Assembly: GCA_002633005.1 (NCBI GenBank)
Contig: NMRA01000583.1
Coordinates: 221,988-264,018, forward strand
DNA from: Phoronis australis
Taxonomy: Eukaryota > Animalia > Phoronida
Direction: 5' to 3'
Length of the DNA: 42,031 nucleotides
The position numbers and the translations under genes are program-made. Every line of letters begins with the position of its first letter. The first letter of the stretch is position 1. Shown one piece after another: positions 2,299-41,299 of the stretch. Below the pieces are notes generated by a model. It had not been told where the DNA came from, did not search any database, and worked only from the letters and a program-made list of their open reading frames with translations.

Positions 2299-2322
2299 CT
2301 CCCCCCTTACCAATTGTACCAG
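2299..2322 (+). CDS. 24-nt phase 1-1 micro-exon, Pro-rich (x-PPLPIVP), of the mucin-Sushi host gene
   Basis: Strong acceptor tttcacctttcttttcag and donor CAG|gtatgt. The length is a multiple of 3 and the phase-1 translation is Pro-rich like the other micro-exons. Confidence 0.6.
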
Positions 2323-8285: not shown

Positions 8286-9112
8286 TCTAGCTTTCAATTC
8301 GAGAAGCGGCAAAAGCTCGAAGCGCTGATATTAATTGTGTGGCGGTCCCTAGACGGACCTTCGCGGATAGTTCTCGAGATATCATCGTGTGTTACACGAG
8401 AAGCACAGATTGAATTACTATAGCTTCCTTCGCGATATTCTTGTATCTACGGAACTAACCCAGCCGTGAAATCGTAGACTACCTCAGGATAACACACGAT
8501 CAAGCGAAGCAAGTGGTCACACTAGTTCGAGAGATTCTTGTATCTACGAAACTAGTCCTGGTTCCATCTCAAATAAACACGATCCCAATTGTAGTGATGT
8601 CTATGTTGAAAATCCCTGTCTATTGGACTTACAAGTCCAAAGTTATTCTGGCTTGAAACTGCGCTTCCCACATCGCCTGGGTACTGTTACATGTAGTTTG
8701 TGAATTCATAACAGCATGTTAACCTATGGCGAAAACCGACTAAATTTCGGTCTTCAGACCGATGACTGAAAACCTAGCTTGTGTTCATGAAACGGTCTTG
8801 TCTGGATTATCGTCGTCTTTCTTAGATTAGCCCGAATTTCGATGTTAACTTAAACACTTTCTGGAATTTAGCCTCTTAATGTCTCGAGTCATTTGTCATA
8901 AAACGGGCCCCAAATCAGCTCTGGCGAAAACTGACTTAATTTCGGTCTAAGTTGCGACCAAAAACCGAAAACCGAAGTTATGGTCATAAAACGCTTTTCC
9001 CGAATCTTTGTCTTCGGTCTTATGTGTAACTTAATTGAGCTTAAATTATGGTCTTTCAAGAGACCGAGTTCTATAGGGTCACGCAAAACTACTAAATTTA
9101 AAAGCCACGGAT

Positions 9113-10065
9113 CAGTGGTGGATCTAGGATATCACAAGGGGGTGCCAACATTTTGTCTGTAAGTATTTGTGCAACGCACAAATGTAGAAGCGCATAGCAC
9201 CGAATGGGGGGAGGTCGGGAGGGGGGTTTGCCCCCTCCTGACCAGGAAAATTTTTCTGTTTTTTCCTCGATAATCAAGCATTTCCTTGATTCCTAAAGTA
9301 TTATACAAGAAAAAAACACGGAGAACGTATCAAGCTTGAAAAACTGCAATTACCACAGACTCGAACTCACGACTGGCGGATGGAGCGCGCTTGCTTTACC
9401 ACTGCACCACCACGATTGCACTCATACTTCAATACTAAGAGACCTATTGTTTATGGTCCACAGCGTTTGCACGCGAAACCTATTTCTTTTTGTAATGCTT
9501 ATTACACTTTTTGTCCTTTGTGCAATCAGTTCGTAACAAATTTGTTGTGTTTAAAATAGTCTTCAATTGCCCAAAAGACCAAATCCGTTTTTTATGTTGG
9601 CATTAATGACGCGGTTGCTTTGGAAATCGTCTTAGGTTAAGGTTTGACAAAGAGAGAACTATGAGCTTCTGAGTGATTCACTAAGGTTAAAATTCACATC
9701 TTACCAGCAGCTTCTGTTTTTTCATCGTTACTCAGATTCCATTTTCTTTAAAAAATGAAGCAATTTTCTTCATTGCATAGTGAAACAGACGACGGAAACG
9801 GAGTGGTAGTGCGCGGCGCCACTGCCGGTCGCCTGGGATATCGCGGGAGAGCCTGTACTAAGCCATAGGCCTAGTTCCGTTACGATTGCGCCGTGTTCCG
9901 AATTTGACACTAAAACTGCACACATTTAAATCTTGTTTCAGCCGTATAATGTTAATTACCTAGGTTAATTAATAAACTCAACATTTCCCTAAGATCTTGC
10001 TGTTTTATTTTTGCGGCAGCCAAGGGGAGGGGCCGGGCCCCCTGCCCCCCCTAAATCCGCCTATG
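9113..10065. mobile_element. Non-autonomous DNA transposon remnant (hAT-like termini)
   Basis: Imperfect TIRs CAGTGGTGGATCTAGG and CCTAAATCCGCCTATG with G-run/C-run subterminal motifs. No 8-bp TSD is visible, so the two ends may belong to different copies. Confidence 0.45.
9353..9414 (-). promoter_or_regulatory. tRNA-derived Pol III A/B-box remnant (SINE-head-like)
   Basis: The minus strand reads TGGTGCAGTGGTAAAGC...GTGAGTTCGAGTC, an A box and a B box at tRNA-like spacing. There is no full cloverleaf. Confidence 0.5.
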
Positions 10066-10467
10066 ATAATTGAAAGGCGAAAAATACTAGAATTATTCGT
10101 GTTCAACACTAAAATATCAAAAGTGGACGAGCACTTTCAAAAACTGTGTTGAATTCCTGATACTCCTTTGATACCAACTGTAAGTAAATTGGAAGGAAAC
10201 GTCTTACTCATCTGCATAGGAAGTGCACGTATATACTCGCCTTACTATACAGCAAATGTGAAAAATAGCCTTCGGCAATTGATCGATAAGGCATGGTGGT
10301 AGTAACCGTTGCATAAACGCTCGCAAATTCAAATATTCCTAATTCTTGTGCACTTTTTGACAAATTGGTGGTCCACTTTTCAGTATTTTGTTGAAGCTTT
10401 TGGTAGTTTTTTGACGTTTGTACAAGGTACATGTTACTAATGATCAGCGGTAATTTTACGTTTCAAG

Positions 10468-10521
10468 GCTATGGACATCTGCGACCGCTTGCAAGCTCAG
10501 CACCAAACACGACACAATTAG
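10468..10521 (+). CDS. 54-nt phase 1-1 exon (x-YGHLRPLASSAPNTTQL) of the host gene
   Basis: ttttacgtttcaag|...TAG|gtacggcaacaac. It has the same length, phase and homologous intron flanks as the exon at 30258-30311. Confidence 0.6.
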   Translation, partial: AMDICDRLQAQHQTRHN

Positions 10522-10760
10522 GTACGGCAACAACTTCTTATATTGAATAGTGTTTACCTATCTGCACAAGTTTAAGTAAAACTGTTGTTTCTACGTTATA
10601 CGGATGCTGAAGTAAAACACTAGCAATACATTACGAACAATTCTCATAGTGCTGTTTTATGATCACGCGGCTCAGGTGAATCTCTTGTGCCGATTCCAAC
10701 TACCACTGGACTTGGATCTAACATTTAATAAATAGCCAAATAGTACACGACTTCATATTC

Positions 10761-10797
10761 TGACATGTTTCGAGGTGCGCACTCGTCATTCTCAAAG
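10761..10797 (-). ncRNA. Degenerate minimal hammerhead-ribozyme-like motif in the Penelope pLTR
   Basis: The minus strand reads TTGAGAATGA-CGAG-tgcgcac-CTCG-AAAC-ATGTCA. Stem II and GAAA are present and the CUGANGA core is imperfect. It sits just 3' of GIY-YIG, where PLE hammerheads are known to occur. Confidence 0.5.
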
Positions 10798-11303
10798 ACA
10801 CAAGTACCAGAATGATGGAAAGGTCAAGGTCACAAGTAAAAGGTCATGCAGATGTGAGGCATGATAGGCCAATAACACACGCAATGGTGAACAGCATCAA
10901 GATGGTGAGGTTGCACATTCAGGGATGGTTTTAATCAATGAATATACAATGCCTCCTCAAGTTTAAGTCTCAGTATGTCCTCGCACTGTCCATGATACTG
11001 AAACAGGACACTGAGTATTCTGATATGCATTCTAGATGATCATGCAAATGTTTGTACATGTTGGAACCTGTGTTAGACACATGCGTGTATTCAGACGTGG
11101 ACGTGTTTCGCCAGCATGACATTAACTACAGTCTGCACAGCAGAGTTCATACACATGTGAGCCTGTGAACAGTGGTGAACTGTCTTTAGGCGAAAAGGTA
11201 GTGAAAGCCAAACGAATCACAACAACGCTTTGCAAATACGCTTCGGTGCTATTGCAAAAAAATGGCCTACGTATGAGACACTAAAACGTTTTACGGATAA
11301 ACC

Positions 11304-11345
11304 ACCCCTCCAACGCCCCCTCCAACGCCTCCTCCAACACCCTCC
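11304..11345. repeat. 12-bp tandem repeat (CCCCCTCCAACG) x~3.5
   Basis: Seen directly. It lies between the RT and GIY-YIG parts of the Penelope element. Confidence 0.75.
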
Positions 11346-12065
11346 CCCCAATACTACCGGTATTGTGTGTCAATCCTGAAAAATAAATAGCATGTACATC
11401 TAGTTTATAATCAGAGTAGCTGGAAACCGATTGTTCTGCGGTATTGCAAACAAATCCTTGACACAATTCCAAAACTCATTCTGCGTGCCACAAATCCTGT
11501 ATGCTCTATCTATCATGCTTCTGACCAGTCCAAATTTGTAGCTGTACATGTGTAAGCTGTAACGATGGAACCTTGGTCAACAAACCAGTGTAAGACTTTG
11601 TTTCTATAGACACTTGTTAACACCACCTCTTTTAACCTGGACAACCAGAAGTGGAATGGAAGACTGGCATTCATCCTCCATGTTGCAAATTAAGCTGACA
11701 TGACGACTATTCATCAATTGGCAAAAATGCTGCGCACAAGTCAACATCTTTGAGGGTGCATAATTATATGCCCCAGTAGAGAACAGTGTAGGTCGAAATG
11801 CTGTAAACATGTCAGCAATGTGAAGTTGTGTACTATTTGGCAATTAATTAAATGTTTGTCTGTGTTTCTGCTGGCTCAAATATTCCAGAAATTTAGAAAG
11901 TACAAGTAAATTGAAATGCTTTCAAAACATTTCTGTCTCTTCGCTTGAAAGGTTCTGTAGCAGTTTTGTTAAAACACCGCTGTATAATTGCAAGGTAAGT
12001 GAGTGTTTCGCAAGTCAAACTGCCGTTTTCCATTTACAATTTGTGCGCATGATTTTTATTTTCAG

Positions 12066-12095
12066 TGACACCCTCCCCACCGCGACCCAGGACAA
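12066..12095 (+). CDS. 30-nt micro-exon type A (x-TPSPPRPRT)
   Basis: tttttattttcag|TGACACCCTCCCCACCGCGACCCAGGACAA|gtaagt. Confidence 0.75.
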
Positions 12096-12637
12096 GTAAG
12101 TTCTTGTGCAATAAAACATTTAATCAAAGAGTATTTTGCACTTGATACGAATAGGAGCTATCCGTTGATCAATGCCAATTTGATGTTGAAACTGTTTTAG
12201 TTTATTGTTGATTAGTTATTGCGTTTAGAATAGTAATTTTTATTTACTCAAATAAAACTACCGGAATTATGATCAAAAGTCTCAACTGAGCAGGGATATT
12301 TGCCACGCCTCCTTCAATTGCACGTAGGCATTGGACACTAATTTGTGTCGGCAATAGCGGATCAGTCACTCTGCATTCACCAAAGCGTTGGTAAATTGGT
12401 GCATTTGCCTGCGCTCACGTGTTCTGTGTGTGCGCATAGGCTCGGAGTTGCGTAGTCTGTGAACCAAACTTGATTGAATCCAAACAGGTGGTAGTATATT
12501 GGCTGTGTACGGTTTAGTGTTACACAAATCAAACTCTCATTGAACCCCAAATATTGAGCTGCGCACGTCTGCATTACGATAGCAATTCAAACTGCCGTTT
12601 TCCATTCAGAAATAATGCGTATGGTTTTCATTTTCAG

Positions 12638-12667
12638 TGACACCCTCCCCACCGCGACCCAGTACAA
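12638..12667 (+). CDS. 30-nt (or 36-nt to 12673) micro-exon type A (x-TPSPPRPST[ST])
   Basis: ttttcattttcag|...AGTACAA|gtacat|gtaagt. Two donors 6 nt apart both preserve frame. Confidence 0.7.
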
Positions 12668-14206
12668 GTACATGTAAGTTCGTGCCCAAAAAACATTTTA
12701 ATAAAAGAATATTTTTGTACTTGATACGAATAGGAGCTATCCGTTTATCAATGCCGATTTGATGTTAAAATTATATTAGTTCATGGTTGATAAGTTATAG
12801 AGTTTAGAATCGTCAATTTAATTTACTCTAATATGATCAAAAATCTAATATGAGCGGGGATTTTTGCCATGCCTCCTCCAAGAACACGTAGGCATTGGAC
12901 ACTAATTTGTTTCGCCAACAGCGGATCAGTCATTCTGCATTCATCAATACTTTGGCAATTTGGTGCATTTGCCTGCGCTCACGTGTACTGTGTACGTGTA
13001 TATGCACCGACATGCGTAGTCTGTGAACCAAACTTGATTGAATCCAGAAAGGTGGTAGAATATTGGCAGTGTAGGGTTTACTGTTACACAAATAAAACTC
13101 TCATTGAACACCAAATATTGAGCTGCACACGTCTACATTACGATCGCAGAAAGAACTCCATCCGCAGAAATGAAAGGCGAATATAGCCTAAAAAATATTT
13201 AACCTTGTTTTGACGACATCGCACTGTCTATTCACCTTTTTGAACCTGGAAGTTCCCGAGTGTTGCTTCCTGAAGTTTAAGTTTCTTTTGTCACATAATG
13301 TTTTACTTCGCTTACATGTGTGTGACACACGGTCTGGTAGCATTGTTTGGAACTAACTTAGGTAAATAACACAACGTGTCACATTGACATAGGTAAAATA
13401 ACGTGAACGTGTTATAGATGTATACACAAAACGTACCGAGAGTGGCGTACATGTAGATGAACTAATATCCCACAAGACATCATTCCACGCATCGACCGAG
13501 ACCGAATCCCATATGCTTTGAATTCCTAATTAACTTTCCTTCAGTTTTTCGGCAGATTTTCTAAACACTTTCCTCAGACTGTTTACGTGGTGGATCGCTT
13601 CCTATATGTATGTACTTGCGGGTAAGGTTGGACGTTTTCTCTAGTAAAAGAAAAGATTTAACGATTTATTAATTAAAAAGAGATAACAAAGATTAAAAAA
13701 TGGTAACTTTACATTGAACTTGTAACATCTCCCGAAAAATTTAAATAACAACAGTGTTTGATATTGTATTTACCGAGGAATCTAGGAATGAGTTTCTGCC
13801 GATATAATATTAAGCAATTGAAAACTGAGACAAAACTGTTATACGGTCCTGTTCCAGATGATGCAATTGGGACCTGATTGCATGTCGATGTTAGTTATAC
13901 TGTTTCAACTGTATTACTTTAAACTATATTAGGAAAGTTTGATGATCGAACCGGCTAACGACGTCGAGTCGACATTGACCTCCTTTTTGAACTTACCATG
14001 TCAGAGGTCACTGTTGAACAAGTGCGGGAGGTGAATATAGAAAACAATAGTACATGGCCTTATTGCATTGACTGATTCAACGCGTATGGGGTAAATTTCG
14101 ATATCCACTGCGTAATTGTTTAAAACGAAATAATTTTCCGGAACACTATTCAATTTTATACTTCATTTTCACGATCATGTCAGTCACGCAGGAATTTCAT
14201 TTGCAG

Positions 14207-14236
14207 CTACACCCATTCTACAAAACTCAAGTACAA
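14207..14236 (+). CDS. 30-nt micro-exon type B (x-TPILQNSST)
   Basis: atttcatttgcag|CTACACCCATTCTACAAAACTCAAGTACAA|gtaaat. Confidence 0.7.
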
Positions 14237-14393
14237 GTAAATCGAAATGCTTCCAAAACATTTCTGACTCTCTGCTTAAAAGCTTCGTAGAAGTTTTTAA
14301 AACACCGCTGCATATTTGAAAGGTATGTGAGTGTTTCGCAAGTCAAACTGCCGTTTTCCATTTACAAATTGTGCGCATGGTTTTTATTTTCAG

Positions 14394-14423
14394 TGACACC
14401 CTCCCCACCGCGACCCAGGACAA
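14394..14423 (+). CDS. 30-nt micro-exon type A (x-TPSPPRPRT)
   Basis: Copy of 12066-12095 (+2328) with AG/GTAAGT intact. Confidence 0.72.
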
Positions 14424-14965
14424 GTAAGTTCTTGTGCAATAAAACATTTAATCAAAGAGTATTTTGCACTTGATACGAATAGGAGCTATCCGTTGATCAA
14501 TGCCAATTTGATGTTGAAACTGTTTTAGTTTATTGTTGATTAGTTATTGCGTTTAGAATAGTAATTTTTATTTACTCAAATAAAACTACCGGAATTATGA
14601 TCAAAAGTCTCAACTGAGCAGGGATATTTGCCACGCCTCCTTCAATTGCACGTAGGCATTGGACACTAATTTGTGTCGGCAATAGCGGATCAGTCACTCT
14701 GCATTCACCAAAGCGTTGGTAAATTGGTGCATTTGCCTGCGCTCACGTGTTCTGTGTGTGCGCATAGGCTCGGAGTTGCGTAGTCTGTGAACCAAACTTG
14801 ATTGAATCCAAACAGGTGGTAGTATATTGGCTGTGTACGGTTTAGTGTTACACAAATCAAACTCTCATTGAACCCCAAATATTGAGCTGCGCACGTCTGC
14901 ATTACGATAGCAATTCAAACTGCCGTTTTCCATTCAGAAATAATGCGTATGGTTTTCATTTTCAG

Positions 14966-14995
14966 TGACACCCTCCCCACCGCGACCCAGTACAA
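14966..14995 (+). CDS. 30/36-nt micro-exon type A (x-TPSPPRPST[ST])
   Basis: Copy of 12638-12667 (+2328). Confidence 0.68.
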
Positions 14996-16534
14996 GTACA
15001 TGTAAGTTCGTGCCCAAAAAACATTTTAATAAAAGAATATTTTTGTACTTGATACGAATAGGAGCTATCCGTTTATCAATGCCGATTTGATGTTAAAATT
15101 ATATTAGTTCATGGTTGATAAGTTATAGAGTTTAGAATCGTCAATTTAATTTACTCTAATATGATCAAAAATCTAATATGAGCGGGGATTTTTGCCATGC
15201 CTCCTCCAAGAACACGTAGGCATTGGACACTAATTTGTTTCGCCAACAGCGGATCAGTCATTCTGCATTCATCAATACTTTGGCAATTTGGTGCATTTGC
15301 CTGCGCTCACGTGTACTGTGTACGTGTATATGCACCGACATGCGTAGTCTGTGAACCAAACTTGATTGAATCCAGAAAGGTGGTAGAATATTGGCAGTGT
15401 AGGGTTTACTGTTACACAAATAAAACTCTCATTGAACACCAAATATTGAGCTGCACACGTCTACATTACGATCGCAGAAAGAACTCCATCCGCAGAAATG
15501 AAAGGCGAATATAGCCTAAAAAATATTTAACCTTGTTTTGACGACATCGCACTGTCTATTCACCTTTTTGAACCTGGAAGTTCCCGAGTGTTGCTTCCTG
15601 AAGTTTAAGTTTCTTTTGTCACATAATGTTTTACTTCGCTTACATGTGTGTGACACACGGTCTGGTAGCATTGTTTGGAACTAACTTAGGTAAATAACAC
15701 AACGTGTCACATTGACATAGGTAAAATAACGTGAACGTGTTATAGATGTATACACAAAACGTACCGAGAGTGGCGTACATGTAGATGAACTAATATCCCA
15801 CAAGACATCATTCCACGCATCGACCGAGACCGAATCCCATATGCTTTGAATTCCTAATTAACTTTCCTTCAGTTTTTCGGCAGATTTTCTAAACACTTTC
15901 CTCAGACTGTTTACGTGGTGGATCGCTTCCTATATGTATGTACTTGCGGGTAAGGTTGGACGTTTTCTCTAGTAAAAGAAAAGATTTAACGATTTATTAA
16001 TTAAAAAGAGATAACAAAGATTAAAAAATGGTAACTTTACATTGAACTTGTAACATCTCCCGAAAAATTTAAATAACAACAGTGTTTGATATTGTATTTA
16101 CCGAGGAATCTAGGAATGAGTTTCTGCCGATATAATATTAAGCAATTGAAAACTGAGACAAAACTGTTATACGGTCCTGTTCCAGATGATGCAATTGGGA
16201 CCTGATTGCATGTCGATGTTAGTTATACTGTTTCAACTGTATTACTTTAAACTATATTAGGAAAGTTTGATGATCGAACCGGCTAACGACGTCGAGTCGA
16301 CATTGACCTCCTTTTTGAACTTACCATGTCAGAGGTCACTGTTGAACAAGTGCGGGAGGTGAATATAGAAAACAATAGTACATGGCCTTATTGCATTGAC
16401 TGATTCAACGCGTATGGGGTAAATTTCGATATCCACTGCGTAATTGTTTAAAACGAAATAATTTTCCGGAACACTATTCAATTTTATACTTCATTTTCAC
16501 GTTCATGTCAGTCACGCAGGAATTTCATTTGCAG

Positions 16535-16564
16535 CTACACCCATTCTACAAAACTCAAGTACAA
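16535..16564 (+). CDS. 30-nt micro-exon type B (x-TPILQNSST)
   Basis: Copy of 14207-14236 (+2328). Confidence 0.68.
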
Positions 16565-16721
16565 GTAAATCGAAATGCTTCCAAAACATTTCTGACTCTC
16601 TGCTTAAAAGCTTCGTAGAAGTTTTTAAAACACCGCTGTATATTTGAAAGGTATGTTAGTGCTTCGCAATTCAAACTGCCGTTTTCCATTCAGAAATAAT
16701 GCGTATGGTTTTCATTTTCAG

Positions 16722-16751
16722 TGACACCCTCCCCACCGCGCCCCAGTACAA
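16722..16751 (+). CDS. 30-nt micro-exon type A (x-TPSPPRPST)
   Basis: ttttcag|...|gtaagt, with a synonymous CGA>CGC change. Confidence 0.75.
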
Positions 16752-18285
16752 GTAAGTTCGTGCCCAAAAACATTTTAATTAAAGAATATTTTTGTATTTG
16801 ATACGAATAGGAGCTATCCGTTTATCAATGCCAATTTGATGTTAAAAATATATTAGTTCATGGTTGATAAGTTATTGAGTTTAGAATCGTCATTTTTATT
16901 TACTCTATTATGATCAAAAGTCTAATATGAGCGGGGATATTTGCCCTGCCTCCTCCAATAACACGTAGGCATTGGACACTAATTTGTGTCGCCAACAGCG
17001 GATCAGTCATTCTGCATTCATCAATACTTTGGCAATTTGGTGCATTTGCCTGCGCTCACGTGTACTGTGTACGTGTATATGCACCGACATGCGTAGTCTG
17101 TGAACCAAACTTGATTGAATCCAGAAAGGTGGTAGAATATTGGCAGTGTAGGGTTTACTGTTACACAAATCAAACTCTCATTGAACACCAAATATTGAGC
17201 TGCACACGTCTACATTACGATCGCAGAAAGAACTCCATCCGCAGAAATGAAAGGCGACTATAGCGTAAAAAAATATTTAACCTTGTTTTGACGACATCGC
17301 ACTGTCTATTCACCTTTTTGAACCTGGAAGTTCCCGAGTGTTGCTTCCTGAAGTTTAAGTTTCTTTTGTCACATAATGTTTTACTTCGCTTACATTTGTG
17401 TGACACACTGTCTGGTAGCATTCTTTGGAACTAACTTAGGTAAATAACACAACGTGTCACATTGACATAGGTAAAATAACGTGAACGTTTTATAGATGTA
17501 TACACGAAACGTACCGAGAGTGGCGTACATGTAGATGAACTAATATCCCACAAGACATCAATCCACGCATCGACCGAGACCGAATCCCATATGCTTTGAA
17601 TTCCTAATTAACTTTCCTCCAGTTTTTCGGCAGATTTTCTAAACACTTCACTCAGACTGTTCCCGTGGTGGATCGCTTCCTATATGTATGTACTTGCGGG
17701 TAAGGTTGGAAGTTTTCTCTAGTAAAAGAAAAGATTTAACGATTTATTAATTAAAAAGAGATAACAAAGATTAAAAAACGGTAACTGTACATTGAACTTG
17801 TAACATCTCCCGAAAAATTTAAATAACAACAATGTTTGATATTGTATTTACCGAGGAATCTAGGAATGAGTTTCTGCCGATATAATATTAACCAATTGAA
17901 AACTGAGACAAAACTGTTATACGGTCCTGTTCCAGATGATGCAATTGGGACCTGATTGCATGTCGATGTTAGTTCTACTGTTTCAACTGTATTACTTTAA
18001 ACTATATTCGGAAAGTTTGATGATCGAACCGGCTAACGATGTCGAGTCGACATTGACCTCCTTTTTGAACTTTCCATGACAGATGTCACTGTTGAACAAG
18101 TGCGGGAGGTGAATATAGAAAACAATATTACATGGCCTTATTGCATTCGACTGATTCAACGCGTATGGGGTAAATTTCGATATCCAATCCGTAATTCTTT
18201 AAAATCAAATAATTGTCCGGAACACTATTTAATTTTGTACTTCATTTTCACGTTCTTGTCAGTCACGCAGGAATTTCATTTGCAG

Positions 18286-18315
18286 CTACACCCATTCTAC
18301 AAAACTCAAGTACAA
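18286..18315 (+). CDS. 30-nt micro-exon type B (x-TPILQNSST)
   Basis: tttgcag|...|gtaaat intact. Confidence 0.68.
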
Positions 18316-18473
18316 GTAAATTGAAATGCTTTCAAAGTACTTCTGACTCTCTGCTTGAAAGCTTCCGTAGAAGTTTTTAAAACACCGCTGTATATTTGAA
18401 AGGTATGTGAGTGCTTCGCAATTCAAACTGCAGTTTTCTATTCCGTAATAATGCGTATGGTTTTCATTTTCAG

Positions 18474-18503
18474 CTACACCCATCCCGCCGCGACCCAGTA
18501 CAA
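18474..18503 (+). CDS. 30-nt micro-exon type A/B intermediate (x-TPIPPRPST)
   Basis: ttttcag|CTACACCCATCCCGCCGCGACCCAGTACAA|gtaagt. The 5' third matches type B and the rest matches type A. Confidence 0.75.
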
Positions 18504-19310
18504 GTAAGTTCGTGCCCAAGTAAACATTTTAATTAAAGAATATTTTTGTACTTGATACGAATAAGAGCTATCCGTTTATCAATGCCGATTTGATGTTAAA
18601 TTCATATTAGTTCATGGTTGATAAATTATTGAGTTTAGAATCATCATTTTTATTCACTCTAATATGATCAAAAGTCTAATATGAGCGGGGATATTTGCCA
18701 TGCCTCCTCCAATTACACGTACATGTAGGCAGTGGACACTAATTTGTGTCGTCAACAGCGGATCAGTCATTCTGCATTCATCAATACTTTGGCAATTCGG
18801 TGCATTTGCCTGCGCTCACGTGTATTGTGTGCGTGTATATGAACCGACTTGCGTAGTCTGTGAACCAAACTTGATTGAATCCAGAAAGGTGGTAGAATAT
18901 TGGCAGTGTAGGGTTTACTGTTATACAAATCAAACTCTCATTGAACACCAAATATTGAGCTGCACACGTCTACATTACGATCGCAGAAAGAACTTCATCC
19001 GCAGAAATGAAAGGCGAATATAGCGTAAGAAATATTTAGCCTTGTTTTGACGATATCGCACTGTCTATTCACCTTTTTGAACCTCGAAGTTACCGAGTGT
19101 TGCTTCCTGAAGTTATACTTTCTTTTGTCGCATACTGTTTTACTTCGCTTACATCTGTGTGACACACTGTCTGGTAGCATTTTTTGGAACTAGCTCAGGT
19201 AAATAACACAACGTGTCACATTGACGTAGGTAAAATAGCGTGAACGTGTTATAGATGTATACACAAAACGTACCGAGAGTGGCGTAGATGAATTAATATC
19301 CCACGAAACA

Positions 19311-19865
19311 TTTTCAAGGAATTCTTTTCAATTTCAGCACACTGGTGTTATTCAAGATGCCAATTGAATACCCTACTTTACTTCGCAATAGGCCTAACCA
19401 ATCAGAAAAAATAGGTCAAAGGTCATTGAGTGCAAACTAAAATTTTGAGCTAGAGACTTCAAAATTACGTATCCGTTTACTAAGTGCGATTTAGTTAGAA
19501 TTCTAAATTTTCAGGTCATTTGGTGCACCCATGGGGTCATTAGGTGCATTTTTCTTCTGAAAATTTGACCACTTCATTCATCTTGTATTCTGAAGTACTT
19601 AAAGTAAAACATCTGTGATTATTAGCATTAACCACGCTTTTAATCGAGTTAACAATTACTCCCTCATCGGGGCTCATAATGCACCGGAAGAGGTCAATTA
19701 GTGGAAATTTCATCAAAAAATTTATATGTAATTTCTCCTACGATTTTAAAGAATTCCTTTTCATATTGGTAAGCGGGTTGTTGTCAGTAACTTCCCATAA
19801 TAATTCCAGTAATACGCACGCGCAGAGTCCTTTATTGTCACGCCGTGACAATAACCTTTCTAGTT
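19311..19865 (+). repeat. Copy of 4836-5370 replacing ~300 bp of one array monomer
   Basis: The monomer stops at aatatcccacgaaaca and resumes at gatattgtagttaccgagga. The intervening monomer sequence is absent. Confidence 0.88.
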
Positions 19866-20314
19866 GATATTGTAGTTACCGAGGATTCTACGCCTGAGTT
19901 GCTGACGATATAATATTAAGCAATTGAAAACTGGAGACAAAAGTGTTATACGGTCCCGTTCCAGATGATGCAATTGGGACCTGATTGCATGTCGATGTTA
20001 GTTACACTGTTTCAACTGTATTACTTTAAACTATAATCGGAAAGTTTGATGATCGAACCGGCTAACGACGTCGAGTCGACATTGACCTCCTTTTTGAACT
20101 TTCCATGTCAGAGGTCACTGTTGAACAAGTGCGGGAAGTGAATATAGAAACCAATATTACATGGCCGCATTGCATTCGACTGATTCAACGCGTACGGGGT
20201 AAATTTCGATATCCACTGCGTAATTGTTTAAAATCAAATAATTGTCTGGAACACTATTTAATTTTATACTTCATTTTAACGCTCATTTCAGTCCCGCAGG
20301 AATTTCATTTGCAG

Positions 20315-20344
20315 CTTCACCCATTCTACAAAACTCAAGTACAA
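20315..20344 (+). CDS. 30-nt micro-exon type B (x-SPILQNSST)
   Basis: tttgcag|CTTCACCCATT...ACAA|gtaaat. Confidence 0.68.
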
Positions 20345-20502
20345 GTAAATCGAAATGCTTCCAAAACATTTCTGACCCTCTGCTTGAAGGCTTCGGTAGA
20401 AGTTTTTAAAACACCGCTGTATATTTGAAAGGTATGTGAGTGCTTTGCAATTCAAACTGCCATCTATCATTTTGAAATAATGCCCATGGTTTTCATTTTC
20501 AG

Positions 20503-20532
20503 CTGTACCCATCCCGCCGCGACCCAGTACAA
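20503..20532 (+). CDS. 30-nt micro-exon type A (x-VPIPPRPST)
   Basis: ttttcag|CTGTACCCATCCCGCCGCGACCCAGTACAA|gtaagt. Confidence 0.73.
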
Positions 20533-20841
20533 GTAAGTTCATGTCCAAGTAAACATTTTAATCAAAGAATATTTTTGTACTTGATACGAATAGGAGCTAT
20601 CCGTTTATCAATGCCAATTTGATGTTAAGTTATTTGAGTTAGTGGTTGATAAGTTATTGGGTTTAGAATGGTCATTTTTATTTACTCTAATATGAACAAA
20701 GTCTAATATGAGCGGGAATATTTGCCACGCCTCCTCCAATTACACGTAGGCATTGGACACTAATTTGTGTTGCCAACAGCGGATCAGGCACCCTGCATTC
20801 ATCAATACTTGGTGCATTTGCCTGCGCTCACGTGTACTGTG

Positions 20842-21881
20842 CCCCTTCCATCCATTACACAGTCAAGTGAATACTGCACTTGACAGGTGTGTGAACCCCG
20901 TCCCTGCAACAGAAACTTATGGACTTCGTCCTAGACCTTTTCGCAATGCCTCCCACCAAAGACTTAGCAGGTGCTCGTGGACTGTCGCTGCTGTTAACGC
21001 AACCATGGGTCTCATCGGCGAGCACATGATCGCGCAAGATGCTGCTTGGCTGCCAGTACAAGAACTTGGTGAGGAACCGAATGTCATCATTGCTTTCAAC
21101 AGGGAAGCGCGGGAATGGCCTCCTGGAGTAGCCCAAGCATTGTGCCGTCAGCAATGGCGTGATCTTGGCGGTATTAATGCCATCATGGTAGCAACTGATG
21201 GATCTTTCGATGGTGAAACTAATCGTGCGGGATGGGGTTATCAAATACGCTGTGCTAACAACGTCATTGCGGAAGGTCGTGGCTGCCACCATGTATACAC
21301 AAGCAGTGCGCGGATGGAGTTTGAGGCTATACAACGTGCCCTAACCAAGCTGTCACTCCTAGACCTGGAGAATCACACCATTATCTTTGCCACCGATTCC
21401 ATGGCAGTGTTGATGAAAGTTCAATCTAGAAACCCCCCAGCCAACTGGGGTGTCTTCCGATCACGCCACCCTCATCATGTAGTGATCTGGTCTTTCGTAC
21501 CTGGCCACGCCGGTGTCTCGATAAATGAGCGTGCAGATTACAGTGTACCTCGCTGGCTCATGCACCACCAACCATCCCCTCTACTTATATTCGGCTGACG
21601 TTAAGCTGCTGGCCCGCAAACGCAACCTCGAGCAGACTGCATCCCACCTGGCTGAGTTCAATGATGGCAGCCGCCTGCTCGAAGCCGGTATTATTTATGG
21701 CCATACTGCGAAGAGTCACAAGAAGAGCCGTGCCCGAGTGCTGTCTAATCAAATGCTTACAGGCAACGTCAGCCCTGGATTTCTGCGCCTTCTGCTGTCA
21801 CGGGGAAGGTCTGGGGAGGGGATTAATGCACCAGCAAATCCCCAATGATCCTGTCCGTGACAGGTATTACAGGTATTACAG
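20842..21881 (+). mobile_element. 5'-truncated non-LTR retrotransposon 3' end carrying RNase H (I-group/Ingi-like)
   Basis: RNase HI motifs ATDGS..AGWG, SSARMEFEAI, ATDSM and FVPGHAGVSINERAD, with a frameshift near 21541. The 3' tail is (ACAGGTATT)x2.5. It is a clean insertion into the monomer sequence actgtg^tgcgtg with a possible GTG duplication. The clade is inferred. Confidence 0.85.
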
Positions 21882-23086
21882 GTGTGCGTGTATATGCACC
21901 GACTTTCGTAGTCTGTGAACCAAACTTGATTGAATCCAGAAAGGTGGTAGTATATTGGCAGTGTAGGGTTTAGCGTTACACAAATCAAACTCTCATTGAA
22001 CACCAAATATTGAGCTGCACACGTCTACATTACGATCGCCGAAACAAATTCATCTGCAGAAATGAAAGGCGAATATAACGTATTTTAAAAGAACACGAAA
22101 TCCTGTTTTGACGATTTCGCACTGTCTGTTCACCTTTTTCAAGCTGGAAGTTCCCGAGTATTACTTCCTGAGGTTTATCTTTCTTTTGTCACATACAGTA
22201 CTGTTTTACTTCGCCTACTTCTGTATGACACACTGTCTGATAGCATTCTCTAGAACTCGCTCTGGTAAATATCACTGCGTGTCATGTTGACGTAGGTAAA
22301 ATAACGTGAACGTGTTATAGATGTGAACACAACCGAGAGTGGCGTAGATGAAGTAATATCCCACTAAACATTATTCCGCGTATCGACCGTGGTCGAATCC
22401 CATACGCTTTGAATTCCTAAGCTTCTTTCATTTTTTCGGCAGATTTTTTAAATACTTCACTCAGACTGTTCACGTGGCGGATCACGTACTTTATGTATGT
22501 ACTTGCTTGTTAGGGTGGAAGTTTTAACTAGTAAAAGAAAAAAAGCTCGAAATGTAACTATTTATTACTTGAAAAGAGATACATGTATCAAAGATGAAAA
22601 CAACTGTAACTGTACTTTGAAGTTGTAACATCTGAGAATATTTCAATAACAACAATATTTGATACTCTAGTTACCGAGGAATCGCCGCCTAAGTTGCAGA
22701 CGCTATAATATTTAACAATTGAAAACTGAGACAGAACTGTCATATAATTAACAGTCCTGTTCCAGATGTTACGGTTTGGTACATGAATGCATGTTGAGTG
22801 TTATTTACACTGCTGCAATTGTATTACTTTAAACTATTTTCGGAAAGTTGATGATCTCACCGGCTAACGAAGTCGAGTCCACATTCATTTACCTTTCGTA
22901 CTTTCCATGCCAGAGGTCACTGTTGAAGTAGTGCGGGAGGTGAATACGGAAGACGTTATTACATTGACGTATTTCCTTCGTCAGGTTCAACGCTTTTGAT
23001 ATCCAATGTGTAATTGTTAAAAAATCAAATAATTGTTCGGAAACTACCTTATTTTCATGTCAGTCACGCAGGACTTTCTTTTTCAG

Positions 23087-23116
23087 CTACGCCTATTCTA
23101 CCAAGCTCAAGTAAAA
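23087..23116 (+). CDS. 30-nt micro-exon type B (x-TPILPSSSK)
   Basis: ctttctttttcag|CTACGCCTATTCTACCAAGCTCAAGTAAAA|gtaagt, with synonymous ACA>ACG and CCC>CCT changes in a diverged monomer. Confidence 0.72.
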
Positions 23117-23276
23117 GTAAGTTGAAATGCTTTCAAAACATTTCTGTCTCTCTGTTTGAAAGCTTCTGTAGTAGGTTTTCAAAACACCGCTGTATCTTTG
23201 CAAGGCGTGTGAGTGTTTTGCAATTCAAACTACCGTTTTCCCTTTCAAAAATCATGCCCATGGTTTTCATTTTCAG

Positions 23277-23306
23277 TTACACCCTCCCCGCCGCGGCCCA
23301 GTAAAA
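23277..23306 (+). CDS. Type A micro-exon with mutated donor (pseudo-exon, or 24-nt exon ending at 23300)
   Basis: The acceptor is intact but the donor is ttaagc. An in-frame cryptic gtaaaa lies at 23301. Confidence 0.45.
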
Positions 23307-24916
23307 TTAAGCTCATGTGCAATTAAACATTTTAATCGAAGTATATTTTGCACTTGATACAAATAGGGACTACCTGTTTATCAGTGCCAATTTGATGTTG
23401 AAACTGTTGTTGTTGACAAGTTATTAAGTTTAGAATGGTCAATTTCATTTACTCTTATGAAGCTATCGGTATTAGGATCAAAAGTCTTAAATGAGCGGGG
23501 ACATTTGCAACGCCTCCTCCAATTATGCAGTACGTACATGTACGCATTGAACACTAATTTGTGTCGGCAATAGGGGATCTGTCAATCTGCATTCATCAAA
23601 ACATTGCGCTCCTGTGTACTTTGTCTGTGTATATGCTCGGACTTGCGTAGTTTGTGAACCAAACTTGATTGAATCCAAACAAGTTGCTGTATATTGGCAG
23701 TGTAATTGTTAGTGTAAGTTACATAAATCAAACTCGTATTGAACACCAAATATTGAGCCACACGTCTACATTACGACCACAGAAACAAATTAATCTGCAG
23801 AAATGAAAGGAGAATATAACGTAAAAGAATAGTAAACCCTGTTTTGACGATTTCAACCAATCCTCGTTCTGGCAACTGCTAATTCATCATTGGTTTCAAT
23901 CATTAGGTTAAATGCATAATCCTTGGTGGTATTTTCCCACAGCTGTCCAGTAATTAGCTAAACGTATAAGTCACACTTGCACATTTAGCAGTATTTGAAA
24001 GGGAGTTTTCAAAATTTCCTCCAAACTTTTGAGGGTTGACGAAGGTTACAGAGCGCTATTTTGTTTCAGTGAACTGGATGGAAAAGTCGTTTTTAGTATC
24101 TGTTAATAGGACAAAACCAGGTTTGGCATCCTTTAAACGGAAGTCATTCAAAAGTATTTATCTATTCCAACATTAAACTTTTAGTGTTCGCTTGAAGCTC
24201 CGCTATTTGCATTTTCATCCAGCGGTGAACCCGTATAGAACATGCCTGCAATTCTTCGTTGGTTTGCATTCGGCGTCATTTTGTCAAAATCTTTGAGTAC
24301 ATCGTAGCATTTAATGCTAGCCCACTTCTCCAATTTTCGTCTTTAGCGCAACAGCAGTAACCTGTTGACTTGTTGCCTTGCAATTCCTCCCTTATCCTCA
24401 TTTGCTTTTAAATGCGAAACTTTGAAAAAACCTTGGTGCTAATCACGTGTTACTTTAGACATCGACACCTGGTGGTATGATAAGGTTTTCTGTGCAGAAG
24501 GTTGCATAAGGGAATATTTTTGAGTTCCGGAGAAAAGACCTTTTTACAGTGTATGAATAAATATGATGCGCATATTAGTTCCTCGTCATCTAGAGACCAC
24601 CAGAATCTGGTTCTAAATGATCAGTGTCCAATATTTGAGCCTGGTTTATTGAAATATCTCCCCAGTATTGATTCTCAAGTGTTAGTTTTCTTTTGTCACA
24701 TACTACTTTAATTCGCTTACATCTTTGTGTCGCAATGTCTGATAGCATTCCATGTAACTCGCTAGGTAAATATCACAGCGTGTCACGTCGCCATAGCAAC
24801 AACAGCGTCTCCAATGTGGAATTGTTTAAAATCAATTTATTGATCTAAAGTAACTTTAATTAATTTTATACTTCATTTTCACGCACATGTCAGTCACGCA
24901 GGAATTTCATTTCCAG

Positions 24917-24952
24917 CTACCACTGCACCCATTCGACCGGGCCCAGATAAAA
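24917..24952 (+). CDS. 36-nt micro-exon (x-TTAPIRPGPDK)
   Basis: atttcatttccag|...|gtaagt in the most decayed monomer. It differs from type B by an in-frame 6-nt gain. Confidence 0.7.
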
Positions 24953-25125
24953 GTAAGTTGAAATGCATTCAAAACATTTCTGGCGAAGTTTAGTTTCGTT
25001 GCACTGTACTACAACTTGTCCCGGCAGAGATTTTAGACTGATGTGAAAGCTGTTCAAGTTCATCAATTATAAGATGCTGACGACAGTATAGAAACTGATA
25101 AACTCTTAAGATAGTCACGAATTTC

Positions 25126-25686
25126 TTCTGTTTCTGTTTCTGTGGTGACGTCAGAGGGTAGGCACCGGGATAGTCTGGCTCTGCTCCTTCCAGTATCGCA
25201 CGCAATGTAAAATTGGAGATGCAACCAACTTCATGCTGATTACACACTCTTCGATCTTTTCCCCTGATACGAGTTTTTGCTGCATCTCCGTATTGCCATC
25301 CTCGCTCTATGAGGCGCTTTGTTGCCCTTCTTTCACTGCGATAAAAGACACTGGCAATTACTGAAAACTTTTCTCACGTTATTCTGTTTCTGTTTCTGTT
25401 TCTGTGGTGACGTCAGAGGGTAGGCACCAGGATAGTCTCTGGCTCTCCTTCTTCCAGTATCGCACGCAATGTTAGGGATTCCTGGATCCCTCTGTTCAAC
25501 TCTATTAGTGGTCTCTTCACCAGTGTTTATATACCAGGACACTGTGGCATCTCATTCAACGTCAAGGCGGATGAGCTTGCAGGCATCGCAGAACCGATTG
25601 CCAACCTGCTCCTCACATCAGCAGATGTAATCTCCAGGGTGCGTGAATCGCTTACAGGTGCCGAGATTGTACGAATTTCTCAATGA
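25126..25686. mobile_element. Rearranged RNase H-LINE fragments: two minus-strand 3' ends plus an inverted RNase H piece
   Basis: 25126-25208 and 25382-25472 are ~85-bp direct copies with a (CAGAAA)n tail on the minus strand. The minus strand reads RLIERGWQYGDAAK..NQ..G.IS..LR. The plus strand at 25483-25686 reads VYIPGHCGISFNVKADELAG..SADV. Both translations align by eye to the LINE at 20842-21881. Confidence 0.75.
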
Positions 25687-26366
25687 GCGGGAATCTTTTC
25701 CACACCATTTAAACTTTGGCTATTTAATGTGAGACTTTCATAAAGCGCTTATTATGGAGGTTGATCAACGACTTTTCACCACCTGGATATACCAGGAGAT
25801 ATTTTTTCACAGCAGGTGGCTCACGGGCATTGTTTGACTTCTGTTAATAGTAAATTTCCTCATGTACATGACACACACGCAGCTTCATATGCAATTAGAA
25901 CATTATGACAACGACGAGTGTTCTACTTGATACGAAAAAGACCCGTTCCTTCAACACTGTCAGTTTAGTATAAAAACTAAGGATCGTTCTAAAGTTCCCA
26001 CTACAACTTCGACCCACGGTCCACAACTCCTTTGATCGAGTCTACTTTTTAGAGTAGATAGCATCCATGATATCCATTACGATTTCATTATGAAATCAAC
26101 ACTTTTCTCGTTGCAATCACAGTCTTTCAAATGTTGCCATCGTTCACGCCAGAATTTCCCCTCAACTGAGATATCATCCATTGATACTTCGATCTACTCC
26201 AGCAATTCCTATGCACGAGAATTTTCCCCGCGACACGTTGAAACGCCGGCGCTGCATCGATGTCTGCCATGTCCTTTCAGTCATTCCTTTCGGTCATTCC
26301 TTTCGGGGTCTTTAGAGTCTGTCGCTATTTCGGCCTACTGGCCGCTTGTATTGGTTTCACTGACTA

Positions 26367-26459
26367 ACAGGGCTTGGGTAGATGGCCTTCTTTCTCACAT
26401 TTAACGTCTATAAACCGGCAACCTTGAGCTTCATGGCAGCTGGCATCACATTGAGTGCA
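26367..26459 (-). pseudogene. Possible decayed Ty3/Gypsy gag zinc-knuckle fragment
   Basis: The minus strand reads CTQCDASCHEAQGCRFIDVKC-EKEGHLPKPC, resembling a double knuckle with part deleted. Confidence 0.35.
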
Positions 26460-27140
26460 GACTAGCCCGTGTCTGGCTCACAGAGAAGTTGTTTTAAGAT
26501 TTTTTCCATGAGTAGCTCTTAAGAATACATGGATCAAGTTTAATGAACTTTTGTTTTTAATTATATTTTGATGTGATGTGCCTAAAGTGCATTGCACATG
26601 TACTATCATAAACTTATGGTCATATCACGAGACAAAGCAGCTACATGTTTTGGCTGAGATCATATCAGGGATCCTCGGTGTTATCAAAGGGGTCTGTAGC
26701 CCACTGGTCTGTTGAAATCATATGTCAAACACTGAAATACAGCCATGACCATATTGCCAACTTAGAGTAGAAGCCAGTTTGAGTCCTGCACGGTATATAA
26801 ATCTTTTTGGACTCACCCAACCATGCAACTCAGAACCGGGCCAGCAGACACCCCGCCAAAATGCTCCGTACATGGTAACCAAACTCCATTCGTATGCACC
26901 AGATTCCATGACCGTGCAAAGAAACCGGTACTGGAACAGCCACAACTATTGAATCTGGTCAGGTGACTGGAGATTGGTTACCCGTTATGGGGACATTTAT
27001 CACGGATTTTGTGGGTGGCGGTTCGGGACAAGGTTTTGGGAATTTGTAGCGGAATCGTTTCCGCGCCTTAATGAGGGCGTTGTTAAGGGCACACTTTCAC
27101 TGAACTGTGTACACTAAAACAGTAACTTATTCCATTGCAG

Positions 27141-27158
27141 TTCCAACGCCACGTGGGA
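27141..27158 (+). CDS. 18-nt phase 1-1 micro-exon candidate (x-PTPRG)
   Basis: cttattccattgcag|TTCCAACGCCACGTGGGA|gtaagt. Confidence 0.5.
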
Positions 27159-27189
27159 GTAAGTAACAAATGAGTAACTGGTGATGGTT

Positions 27190-27342
27190 GTGCTGCAGCA
27201 GGTGGTGTATCTTCTGCTGCAGCCTCTAGTTGGCTGTAGTTAATGGTGGTAGTGTTGTTGCTGTTGATGTTGCTGCTGTACTGCTGCTGCTGCTTCTGCT
27301 GATGCTGCTGCTAGTGCTGCTGCTTCTGCTGCTGCTGCTGGC
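27190..27342. repeat. Degenerate (CTG/TTG)n trinucleotide low-complexity tract
   Basis: Imperfect gctgct runs with no sustained ORF. Confidence 0.8.
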
Positions 27343-27438
27343 TAAGATGAACATAGTGATAGTGATAGCGATCGATGACAACGTACATAACAAAGGCGGA
27401 TGACTTCGTCACAAATTGTATATATTTAGTGAACAGTA

Positions 27439-28247
27439 TACACCGGGGACCTAAAGTCGTGAATATAAGCATAATAAGTGCCGATTGTCATACTACCCAA
27501 TGTCCGTTAGCAACTGCTCATGTGATGTCATGGACTAATATCAGCCTTCACAAATATACGTGTTTTGACAATCTTAATCCTTGTTTGTATCCGTAAGCAG
27601 ATTTTTAAAACTGTCGCTGATATCGGCGGCCATTTTGAATGAGGCCCTAAAATCGTGACCGTTTCGGTTAGACGGAAATACACGAAGTAAGACCTCCCAA
27701 GTCAACTACAGTGCGTACAGTTACTCTAGATGACATAAAAATGTATTGCATTGTTTATTAATTCAGTTTCAATTGAAATAAATTGTCATAAGTTTTGCAC
27801 CCAACTTTGATGTGCACAGACGTTTTCAATGAGGTTGTTCACGTAAAACGCTAAGAACCCAGCATCAATTATCGCTCTGTATTTTATTGTTTTGGCCTTA
27901 CAAAACTTGATCAACCCTGGGACATTTTGATACATTATTCAAGCTACCCCTGGAGCGCGTGTTTGAGTAAATCTGAACGATAAATAGTTTCGAAAATATA
28001 TCCCAAAAATGCCCAAAAAAGTGAATTAGTGAAATATGCTGTTTTTAAGATACATTTGAAAAAAGAAGCCACTCACTCACTGTTTGTTATCATATTGTGA
28101 ATACGAACACGTCCGGGTATTCGTTTGACGTTCGTAAGCAGACGAACGCTGGAAACTTCAACGCCAGATGTCGCAGGACCGCGCAGAAGAGGAAATAAGA
28201 TCGTTCACGACTTTAGGGCACTCACGACTTTAGGGCCTCTGACGGTA
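27439..28247. mobile_element. MITE-like element (Tc1/mariner-pogo type end)
   Basis: CCTAAAGTCGTGAA (27450-27463) is inverted at 28204-28217 and repeated at 28222-28235. The right end is ACGG-TA and the left terminus is degenerate. Confidence 0.55.
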
Positions 28248-30257: not shown

Positions 30258-30311
30258 GCCTTGGGGGAATAGTGAAGCCACCATCGACATTACCAATACC
30301 AATACAAAAAG
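30258..30311 (+). CDS. 54-nt phase 1-1 exon (x-LGGIVKPPSTLPIPIQK)
   Basis: tattttgtttacag|...AAG|gtacagcaacaac. Paralogous in length and flanks to 10468-10521. Confidence 0.62.
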
Positions 30312-30841: not shown

Positions 30842-30859
30842 GCCCTCCGAAAGTACCAA
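30842..30859 (+). CDS. 18-nt phase 1-1 micro-exon (x-PPKVP)
   Basis: ctttcatttcaactacag|GCCCTCCGAAAGTACCAA|gtaagt. The flanks resemble those of array micro-exons. Confidence 0.58.
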
Positions 30860-30970
30860 GTAAGTTCACATGAAGTGTAAACACTTCTAGTGGCTGAAGT
30901 TTGGTTGCTTTCATCGTTTTGTTGTCAACAGCTTTGAAATTCATTATTTGCTGTTTTTGCTAAAGTATAG

Positions 30971-41165: not shown

Positions 41166-41299
41166 AAAGTGTGGACTCCGGTTCAGGGGTACCAGCAGAA
41201 TTGCATGAAGCGAAACAGTACGATCAAAATGCGTCAGCCCAGCTCACTCACAACGCACACGGTGTAATTGCCTTGACCTTGATCCTAGCTCTGTATTGA
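41166..41299 (+). CDS. Terminal coding exon with GPI-signal-like C-terminus (E-SVDSGSGVPAELHEAKQYDQNASAQLTHNAHGVIALTLILALY*)
   Basis: cacgtttcag| entered in phase 1, matching the previous exon. Small residues NAS/A, a polar spacer and a ~12-residue hydrophobic tail precede TGA at 41297-41299. Confidence 0.72.

Follow-up and report, generated by a model that had tools for sequence, protein, structure and literature searches.

The window analysed here is a 42,031-nucleotide stretch of the Phoronis australis genome (contig NMRA01000583.1, positions 221,988 to 264,018; coordinates below are those of the window), and it holds a 13-kb region of tandem repeats. Is this region satellite DNA, or is it part of a gene? 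The initial annotation read it as a cassette array of 14 frame-symmetric micro-exons. The best explanation, to which we give a probability of roughly 0.75, is an array within a gene of intron-plus-micro-exon units, in which copies with a GTAAGT donor are spliced in order and copies with damaged donors are skipped, the result being a lengthened rod on a predicted GPI-anchored two-Sushi protein. RNA reads directly show splicing, exon order and strand, and that use of the copies follows their donor sequence.

Layout of the array

The 13-kb region is a tandem duplication whose copies are about 75-99% identical and whose insertions sit in introns. It contains 14 segments of types A and B, all of 30 or 36 nt and each starting at the position first given for it; the pyrimidine tract and CAG ascribed to each are present in front of all 14, and none has a stop in the phase-1 frame. 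The proposed monomer of about 1.75 kb with two segments does not describe the array, in which B-to-B spacing runs from 1751 to 2772 nt and three segments (B, A, A') make up each of the first two units. Nor does every segment carry a GTAA(G/A)T donor, the 30-nt form at 23277 ending at TTAAGC. The 6-nt steps in segment length are real at 12638 and 14966, where they stem from a GTACAT insertion, but they are not peculiar to exons: among 38 pairwise indel records, 3 show the same hexamer gained or lost in an intron, with one TACATG besides, some of these records being the same event. Two pairs of type A segments are identical in sequence, A1 with A2 (30 nt) and A1' with A2' (36 nt).

Splicing of the array

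Three raw-read RNA runs (X2-X4), bearing the same species label and from one study, were used, with 18-19% of each run read; paired counts and depths are given as X2/X3, the two expressing runs. No joints of the gene were found in the 18-19% of X4 that was read, nor in run X1, in which 0.20 of words were present. In two of the three runs, stranded reads lead from the exon at 10468 through the type A copies to 23087, 24917, the Sushi exons and the last exon; GT..AG joints and loose ends mark the path throughout, and the first mate is nearly always on the minus strand. The features of this part of the window are as follows.

2299..2322, + strand: candidate upstream symmetric micro-exon, Pro-rich, 24 nt, from a splice-site scan
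10468..10521, + strand: 54-nt phase-1 exon; its 3' end matches the loose ends before type A (192/235 reads, agreement 1)
11897..11905, + strand: B0, a type B copy truncated to its 3' end, donor GTAAAT, not used
12066..12095, + strand: A1 micro-exon, 30 nt, used
12638..12673, + strand: A1' micro-exon, 36 nt, distal donor used (joint with extra CAT, 286/271 reads)
14207..14236, + strand: B1, 30 nt, donor GTAAAT, skipped; identical to B3, U1 duplex -3.0 kcal/mol
14394..14423, + strand: A2 micro-exon, 30 nt, used (23 X2 reads; junction ratio)
14966..15001, + strand: A2' micro-exon, 36 nt, likely used (two copies predict a junction ratio of 1.59, and 1.65/1.69 was observed)
16535..16564, + strand: B2, 30 nt, donor GTAAAT, skipped, on the same basis as B1
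16722..16751, + strand: A3 micro-exon, used, with possible skipping in some 5% of messages
18286..18315, + strand: B3, donor GTAAAT, skipped (bin depth 1.37/0, pooled over three type B copies, since 14207 and 16535 fold onto this bin)
18474..18503, + strand: A4 micro-exon, used (18503->20503, 102/89 reads, plus 123/106 placed on A5)
20315..20344, + strand: B4, donor GTAAAT, skipped (bin depth 0.14/0)
20503..20532, + strand: A5 micro-exon, used (20532->23087, 233/180 reads; loose ends 263/184)
23087..23116, + strand: B5 micro-exon, donor GTAAGT, used (23116->24917, 283/183 reads)
23277..23306, + strand: A6, donor GT changed to TT, skipped (bin depth 0/0; bypassed by 23116->24917)
24917..24952, + strand: B6 micro-exon, 36 nt, used (RNA joints)

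The spliced micro-exons within monomers rule out non-coding satellite DNA, and they bear out the proposal that tandem duplication of intron-plus-micro-exon units expands a P/T/S-rich region. The expectation that all 14 segments serve as exons held in part: nine are likely used, and five (four of the six type B segments, plus A6) are skipped. The letters of B0 are absent between 10521 and type A in the reads.

Could any subset of the exons be skipped, giving many isoforms as in schistosome micro-exon genes? This suggestion of free combinatorial skipping now looks improbable. All array exons are symmetric, as it would have them, and one possible skip junction was seen, 16754->18474 (11/10 reads, about 5%), which suggests skipping of A3 and is the sole such junction among the joints listed; 46 and 20 further joints, where those of low count fall, belong to the two junction analyses. 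Against it, low-level skips between near-identical repeats may reflect template switching or an allele lacking A3, the three tested boundaries each have a single neighbour with agreement 1, and sequential array junctions carry 150-280 reads each, main junctions of the gene carrying about 180-380. Loose ends in front of 23087 agree with 20503, loose ends behind 23116 agree with 24917 (agreement 1 each), and A3 joins A4 (16751->18474) in 107/86 reads, plus 54/62 placed at 20507. One ordered path dominates in both expressing runs, that is, in two samples.

Because two pairs of type A segments are identical, we infer the use of both copies in each. A rival account makes the youngest 2.3-kb duplication (11898-14228 versus 14229-16556) an assembly artefact or a private allele, with seven exons used. 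The two halves do show only 3 differences in 2.2 kb; but the repeated-junction ratio of 1.44-1.69 fits two A/A' units (simulated values 1.0, 1.59 and 2.18 for one, two and three units, provided each read is counted once), and 23 X2 reads run from a 36-nt exon into an A1-type exon and then A, so that this account is very hard to credit.

Two further candidates were set aside. A joint 23113->33272 (4 reads) was taken as a likely artefact, and a third 30-nt candidate per monomer (13578, 15906, 17656 and 22465) has a weak donor and both-strand reads, with no joints among those listed.

Donor sequence and silenced copies

The five of 14 segments left out of the message are exactly those with damaged donors, B1-B4 and A6. 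Used copies carry GTAAGT, whereas type B at 14207, 16535, 18286 and 20315 carries GTAAAT. U1 duplexes came to -5.3 kcal/mol or stronger for the 15 used donors that were scored and to -3.0 kcal/mol or weaker for the 8 scored unused donors in array segments and the type C candidate; predicted U1 pairing separates used from skipped array donors. It does not decide use on its own, since the donor at 11995, almost perfect at -11.4, appears to go unused. Depth at 23087 is 39/28.9, to be set against the bins at 18286 and 20315 above. For A6 the only possible donor belongs to a 24-nt form with GTAAAA, which is ruled out by a depth of 0 in both runs. The five skipped copies are likely pseudo-exons.

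Alternatively, B1-B4 might be cassette exons under regulation, their donors weak by design, that are turned on in other tissues or stages, each adding an N-S-S sequon. All four keep an open frame and intact acceptors, B1, B3 and B4 vary little (1 of 56 columns in exon and splice sites, versus 53 of 442 intronic, P=0.009), type B shows possible trace depth in X2, and CD46 regulates an STP exon by such means (PMC2118878, available text). Yet the trace amounts to at most about 10 reads in X2 for the pooled B1-B3 bin and none in X3; B1-B4 share one inherited donor change, and their sister copy B0 is truncated. The quiet type B window is itself not significant in a scan; 74% of shuffles contain a window as quiet, and 14 of the 911 windows match it. 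We regard regulated use as unlikely. The same doubt attaches to its fuller form, a set silent by default whose tuned weak donors would permit inclusion in other tissues or on challenge, inserting four N-glycosylation sequons between O-glycosylated A repeats; if true, a young tandem array would switch, through splicing, both the glycans and the length of an orphan GPI-anchored Sushi protein. The low variation of the skipped B1, B3 and B4 is odd for dead exons.

Variation among copies

Exons and splice signals had been expected to be more conserved than the monomer around them. Among the five used A copies this was not so, 9 of 30 exon columns being variable versus 76 of 310 intron columns (P=0.81). 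Conservation is an invalid test of exon status here because the copies are so young, and the exons are real although the test came out against them. Changes are too few for dN/dS in the array exons, where variation equals that of introns; selection on exon sequence is unsupported by the conservation and indel-length tests on array copies. Units 0 and 1 show 15 differences before 12,000 but just 3 over the 2.2 kb that follow, an edge such as recombination would leave, and the flanks of A1 group with those of the distant A6 (support 0.977). The array may have grown by unequal recombination between monomers. Phase-1 symmetry would let copies be gained or silenced without frameshift; rod length would therefore shift mainly by duplication and donor mutation, not by splicing choice.

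The predicted protein

Downstream of the array the path continues through the following exons.

27141..27158, + strand: symmetric 18-nt micro-exon, probably used (4 reads join it to the 30258 exon)
30258..30311, + strand: Pro-rich phase-1 exon, 54 nt, used (RNA joints)
30842..30859, + strand: 18-nt micro-exon, used (its letters stand between 30312 and 33272 in 197/206 reads)
33272-33341 and 35307-35434, + strand: two exons of Sushi-like domain 1, six cysteines (joints 293/241; repeat profile)
37762-37840 and 40624-40751, + strand: two exons of Sushi-like domain 2, six cysteines (joints 377/323; Pfam; repeat profile)
41166..41299, + strand: last coding exon (loose ends after 40751, 220/273 reads; hydropathy)

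The proposed phase-1 fit between array and Sushi exons is evident in the RNA joints. The link 24952->27141->30258 is thinly documented (4 reads), and no direct 24952->30258 joint occurs among the joints listed. The used array exons contribute 288 coding bases, about 96 P/T/S/R-rich residues, to a pre-Sushi region that is 61% P/S/T over 152 residues; micro-exons make up 348 of 995 coding bases (35%) and 12 of 19 exons, a count that excludes the 5' end of the gene, outside the window. After this region come the two Sushi-like domains, scoring 25.9 bits (domain 1; best of 500 shuffles, 11.0) and 27.6 bits (domain 2) on the repeat profile, with a Pfam Sushi match to the second half of domain 2 at E=0.0023, below cut-off. 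The C-terminus is short, hydrophobic and GPI-signal-like as judged by eye and hydropathy, and on sequence grounds the product is predicted to be a GPI-anchored two-Sushi surface protein. A simple scan of 1-10460 found no signal-peptide exon; the signal peptide is likely encoded upstream of the window. The rod, by its composition, would be O-glycosylated and extended. It would stand beyond the two Sushi domains next to the membrane as a spacer or shield, and might carry a head at its N-terminus, encoded further upstream than the window reaches.

When half-exons of the Sushi domains were used singly as queries, which gives weak evidence, no close homologue was returned. Five matches at E up to 0.001 were long repeat proteins of 28-42% identity, two with bacterial-type domains, and were rejected as orthologues.

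The micro-exons at 27141 and 30842, the candidate at 2299 and the B0 remnant ending at 11905 add to the initial annotation. Judging from flanks that align with those of types A and B, the 30842 micro-exon appears to be an older paralogue with a shifted acceptor.

Relation to known systems

The exon-per-repeat design is already known from chicken Muc13; this locus adds a young array in which live copies stand next to silenced ones. Exon-per-repeat splicing also occurs in FIM-B.1, a large secreted gel-forming mucin with vWD domains, of which this window has none. The Xenopus FIM-B.1 is a polymorphic mucin with a short consensus repeat, to go by a title cited in the available part of PMC7177656. 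According to the accessible text of PMC1552070, the PTS domain of chicken Muc13 has one near-identical exon per 20-residue repeat, and length variation by splicing was raised as a possibility; Xenopus Otogl has a multi-exon mucin domain (PMC5789918, likewise in part). The present locus resembles both in having a P/T/S repeat domain, here found in transcripts, in which each repeat is one near-identical exon. It differs from Muc13 in its shorter repeats (10-12 residues) and in carrying a pair of Sushi-like domains with six Cys each, then a GPI-like tail, where Muc13 has SEA and a transmembrane segment with cytoplasmic tail. In contrast to both, its introns are still alignable, silenced copies are interspersed, and splicing has been measured and is mostly fixed. 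The Muc13 idea of length variation by splicing is thus, at this one locus and in two samples, mostly not borne out.

CD55 is GPI-anchored, and in CD46 and CD55 the STP region lies between the Sushi domains and the membrane anchor. Like these proteins, the predicted product joins Sushi domains to a Ser/Thr/Pro region that short exons encode (for CD46, the available part of PMC2118878). Unlike them, it has P/T/S exons N-terminal of Sushi, two six-Cys domains rather than four SCRs, and no major isoform switch in two samples; apart from the fold motif, it has no homology to RCA proteins. With schistosome micro-exon genes, as described in the accessible part of PMC8293314, it shares runs of symmetric exons of at most 36 nt, a predicted surface product and TE-rich surroundings; it departs from them in that micro-exons form only 35% of coding bases, are tandem paralogues, are joined to globular domains, and show no free skipping in two samples.

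Literature searches, with most subscription papers outside their reach, found nothing on invertebrate PTS domains built from short tandem exons and only an irrelevant match for micro-exons, Sushi and GPI together; for TACATGTA they returned only oomycete and fungal promoter papers, and the available part of PMC4948705 holds nothing on exon-per-repeat domains.

The locus captures, with confirmation from RNA, how mucin-like domains of the exon-per-repeat kind come about, with the introns still present. Single donor changes part used from skipped copies in near-identical surroundings, a natural mutagenesis series for micro-exon definition. In annotation, the 13-kb repeat would probably be masked, at a loss of 288 coding bases.

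Array and host gene

The micro-exon array is real and expressed. All 14 segments named in the initial annotation were found at their assigned starts, with a T-rich tract and CAG ahead of each; the donor claimed at 23277 is absent, TTAAGC standing there where the other segments have GT. By self-BLAST, 11898-24982 is a tandem duplication (~75-96% identity per match), in which each unit comprises a type B segment, a 157-160-nt gap, a type A segment and a long intron. A 572-nt internal duplication gave the first two units a second A segment (A', 36 nt), and insertions lengthen later units, the B-to-B spacing being 1751-2772 nt.

Exons of the host gene beyond the array are:
33272-33341, downstream exon
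35307-35434, downstream exon
37762-37840, downstream exon
40624-40751, downstream exon
41166-41299, last coding exon

The downstream exons encode two domains; both contain six cysteines and a single tryptophan. In domain 2, Pfam Sushi matched the second half weakly (E=0.0023, below cut-off). A profile built from 31 similar repeats in two database hits scored 25.9 bits for domain 1 and 27.6 for domain 2, versus at most 11.0 among 500 shuffles; because those hits were retrieved with domain 2, domain 1 is the sole independent test. The C-terminus, judged by eye and hydropathy, is predicted to be GPI signal-like, with a short hydrophobic tail behind small residues. A simple scan of 1-10460 found no signal-peptide exon, and the 5' end of the gene therefore likely lies upstream. 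Database searches returned no orthologue of the host protein. Judged by its domains and introns, the gene is that of an animal. In the product, the repeat region would form an extended rod, probably O-glycosylated, with the Sushi pair between it and the membrane.

RNA evidence for ordered splicing

The RNA data comprised three raw-read runs of one study (X2, X3, X4) and one contig set (X1), mapped to two regions, 22950-40850 and 16600-23450; in the latter mapping, 16722 and 18286 also collect the reads of the A and B copies further upstream. The micro-exons are spliced in order, as the joints demonstrate.

Reads at splice joints (X2/X3)
End of exon 10468-10521 to type A: 192/235 (loose ends ahead of type A, agreement 1)
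A to A: 328/326
36-nt form to A: 326/296, with 50/38 more placed on later copies
16751 to 18474: 107/86, with 54/62 more placed at 20507
18503 to 20503: 102/89, with 123/106 more placed on A5 (20503)
20532 to 23087: 233/180
23116 to 24917: 283/183 (GT..AG, passing over 23277)
30311 to 33272 by way of 30842-30859: 201/206 (GT..AG), with 28/37 more placed directly
Three Sushi joints: 232-377 (GT..AG; X2, X3)
Into the last exon: 220/273 (loose ends)

An 18-nt exon at 27141 has 4 reads among the joints listed, which do not include a direct 24952 to 30258 joint. Bin depth (X2/X3) was 1.37/0 at 18286, 0.14/0 at 20315 and 0/0 at 23277, versus 39/28.9 at 23087; converted from per-base depth, the three pooled B copies amount to at most ~10 reads in X2, versus ~300. 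From the joints and bin depths it was concluded that nine of the 14 segments are likely used, totaling 288 nt or 96 residues, and five skipped. Expression is sample-specific within the study, X4, like X1, having none of the 22950-40850 gene joints. In X2 and X3, exon depth is about 300-fold over the portion of each run that was read.

Short reads do not separate A1 (12066) from A2 (14394), nor A1' (12638) from A2' (14966). The repeated junctions exceed single ones by a factor of 1.44-1.69; the simulated ratio, with each read counted once, is 1.0 for one unit, 1.59 for two and 2.18 for three (for two units, 2.0 if a read is counted twice). In 23 X2 reads, moreover, the 36-nt exon is followed by an exon of A1 type carrying a one-base variant. 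Both the ratio and these reads favour transcription of two A/A' units.

The sole skip-like joint among the 15 listed, from the 36-nt form to 18474 (11/10 reads, ~5%), may come from messages that really lack 16722, from an allele or from template switching, and the other 46 joints are probably no better supported. Three boundaries checked via loose ends have one neighbour apiece (agreement 1). In light of this lone joint and these single neighbours, the combinatorial exon use that had been proposed is not seen in X2 and X3, the two expressing samples.

Donors and skipping

Use of the copies is linked to the donor. Every used array exon has GTAAGT; GTAAAT is found in B0 (a truncated remnant ending at 11905) to B4, and GT is lost in A6 (23277). 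Duplex energies, based on the motif at the U1 5' end, reach at least -5.3 kcal/mol in strength for each of the 15 used donors scored, versus -3.0 kcal/mol or weaker for the eight unused donors scored (array segments and a type C candidate, the third 30-nt candidate per monomer). Change of the +5 G in a donor leads to exon skipping, and we infer that it does so in the array. Use here requires U1 pairing, yet pairing alone is not enough, since a strong, near-perfect donor at 11995 appears unused; it lies 71 nt ahead of the 12066 acceptor. The pattern is reciprocal, A being used and B dropped in units 0-4, and B used and A dropped in unit 5; resting on two mutational events, it may be chance.

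One result runs counter to taking the skipped B copies for likely pseudo-exons: exon plus splice sites of B1, B3 and B4 (14207, 18286, 20315) vary in only 1/56 columns versus 53/442 in introns (P=0.009). This was one among several tests, 14/911 windows are equally quiet, and 74% of shuffles contain a window of this kind. It gives the reading of these copies as regulated cassette exons a low but real probability. Silencing of a copy, like its gain, would be harmless owing to frame symmetry.

Sequence variation and origin

The extra conservation expected of the exons was not found: among five used A copies, 9/30 exon columns are variable versus 76/310 intron columns (P=0.81), and exon sequence is therefore free to drift within the P/T/S/R palette. 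The 6-nt gain of A', whose longer form is used according to RNA, is a GTACAT insertion; it need not mean frame selection, because similar insertions occur in introns. GTACAT indels recur in the window, and TACATGTA occurs 21 times versus 1.2 expected from base composition, a strong excess; a literature search yielded no relevant paper.

Type A, type B and the 18-nt exon 30842 can be aligned to one another around splice sites only, and thus descend from older duplications. In exon 30842-30859 the ancestral A/B-type acceptor is apparently gone, with a new AG 6 nt downstream and the frame kept. Differences show a sharp edge (15 before 12,000, 3 after) and the flanks of A1 group with those of A6, consistent with growth of the array by unequal recombination.

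Related designs

Published accounts offer several comparisons. Chicken Muc13 has a PTS domain with one exon per 20-residue repeat, a design shared with this array (PMC1552070), and Xenopus Otogl also matches it (PMC5789918). CD46 is a model of a regulated STP exon next to Sushi domains, with a domain order unlike that of this gene (PMC2118878). Schistosome micro-exon genes have mostly short symmetric exons subject to skipping (PMC8293314), whereas here such exons account for 35% of the coding sequence seen, with little skipping.

Mobile elements and repeats

Pfam finds an RNase H domain (E=6.5e-11) in an insertion in unit 4 (20842-21881), which has short tandem repeats at its end and resembles a 5'-truncated non-LTR retroelement. 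The intron between 2322 and 10468 holds a broken gag/protease-like retroelement fragment (6757-8290; zinc knuckle, weak Pfam match), which we take to be BEL/Pao-like. At 31600-32960, minus strand, a broken reverse-transcriptase-like fragment was read by eye; Pfam searches with three pieces of it gave no match. One dispersed repeat, abundant among RNA reads, occurs at 19311-19865 (unit 3) and 4836-5369 (upstream), with 90% identity. Palindromic or inverted-repeat, MITE-like elements lie at 40065-40370, 1842-1942, 33497-34433 and 10720-11856, the last adjoining the truncated B0 copy. Most of the last intron is taken up by a 37-bp minisatellite (40877-41137; 7.1 copies, 99%).
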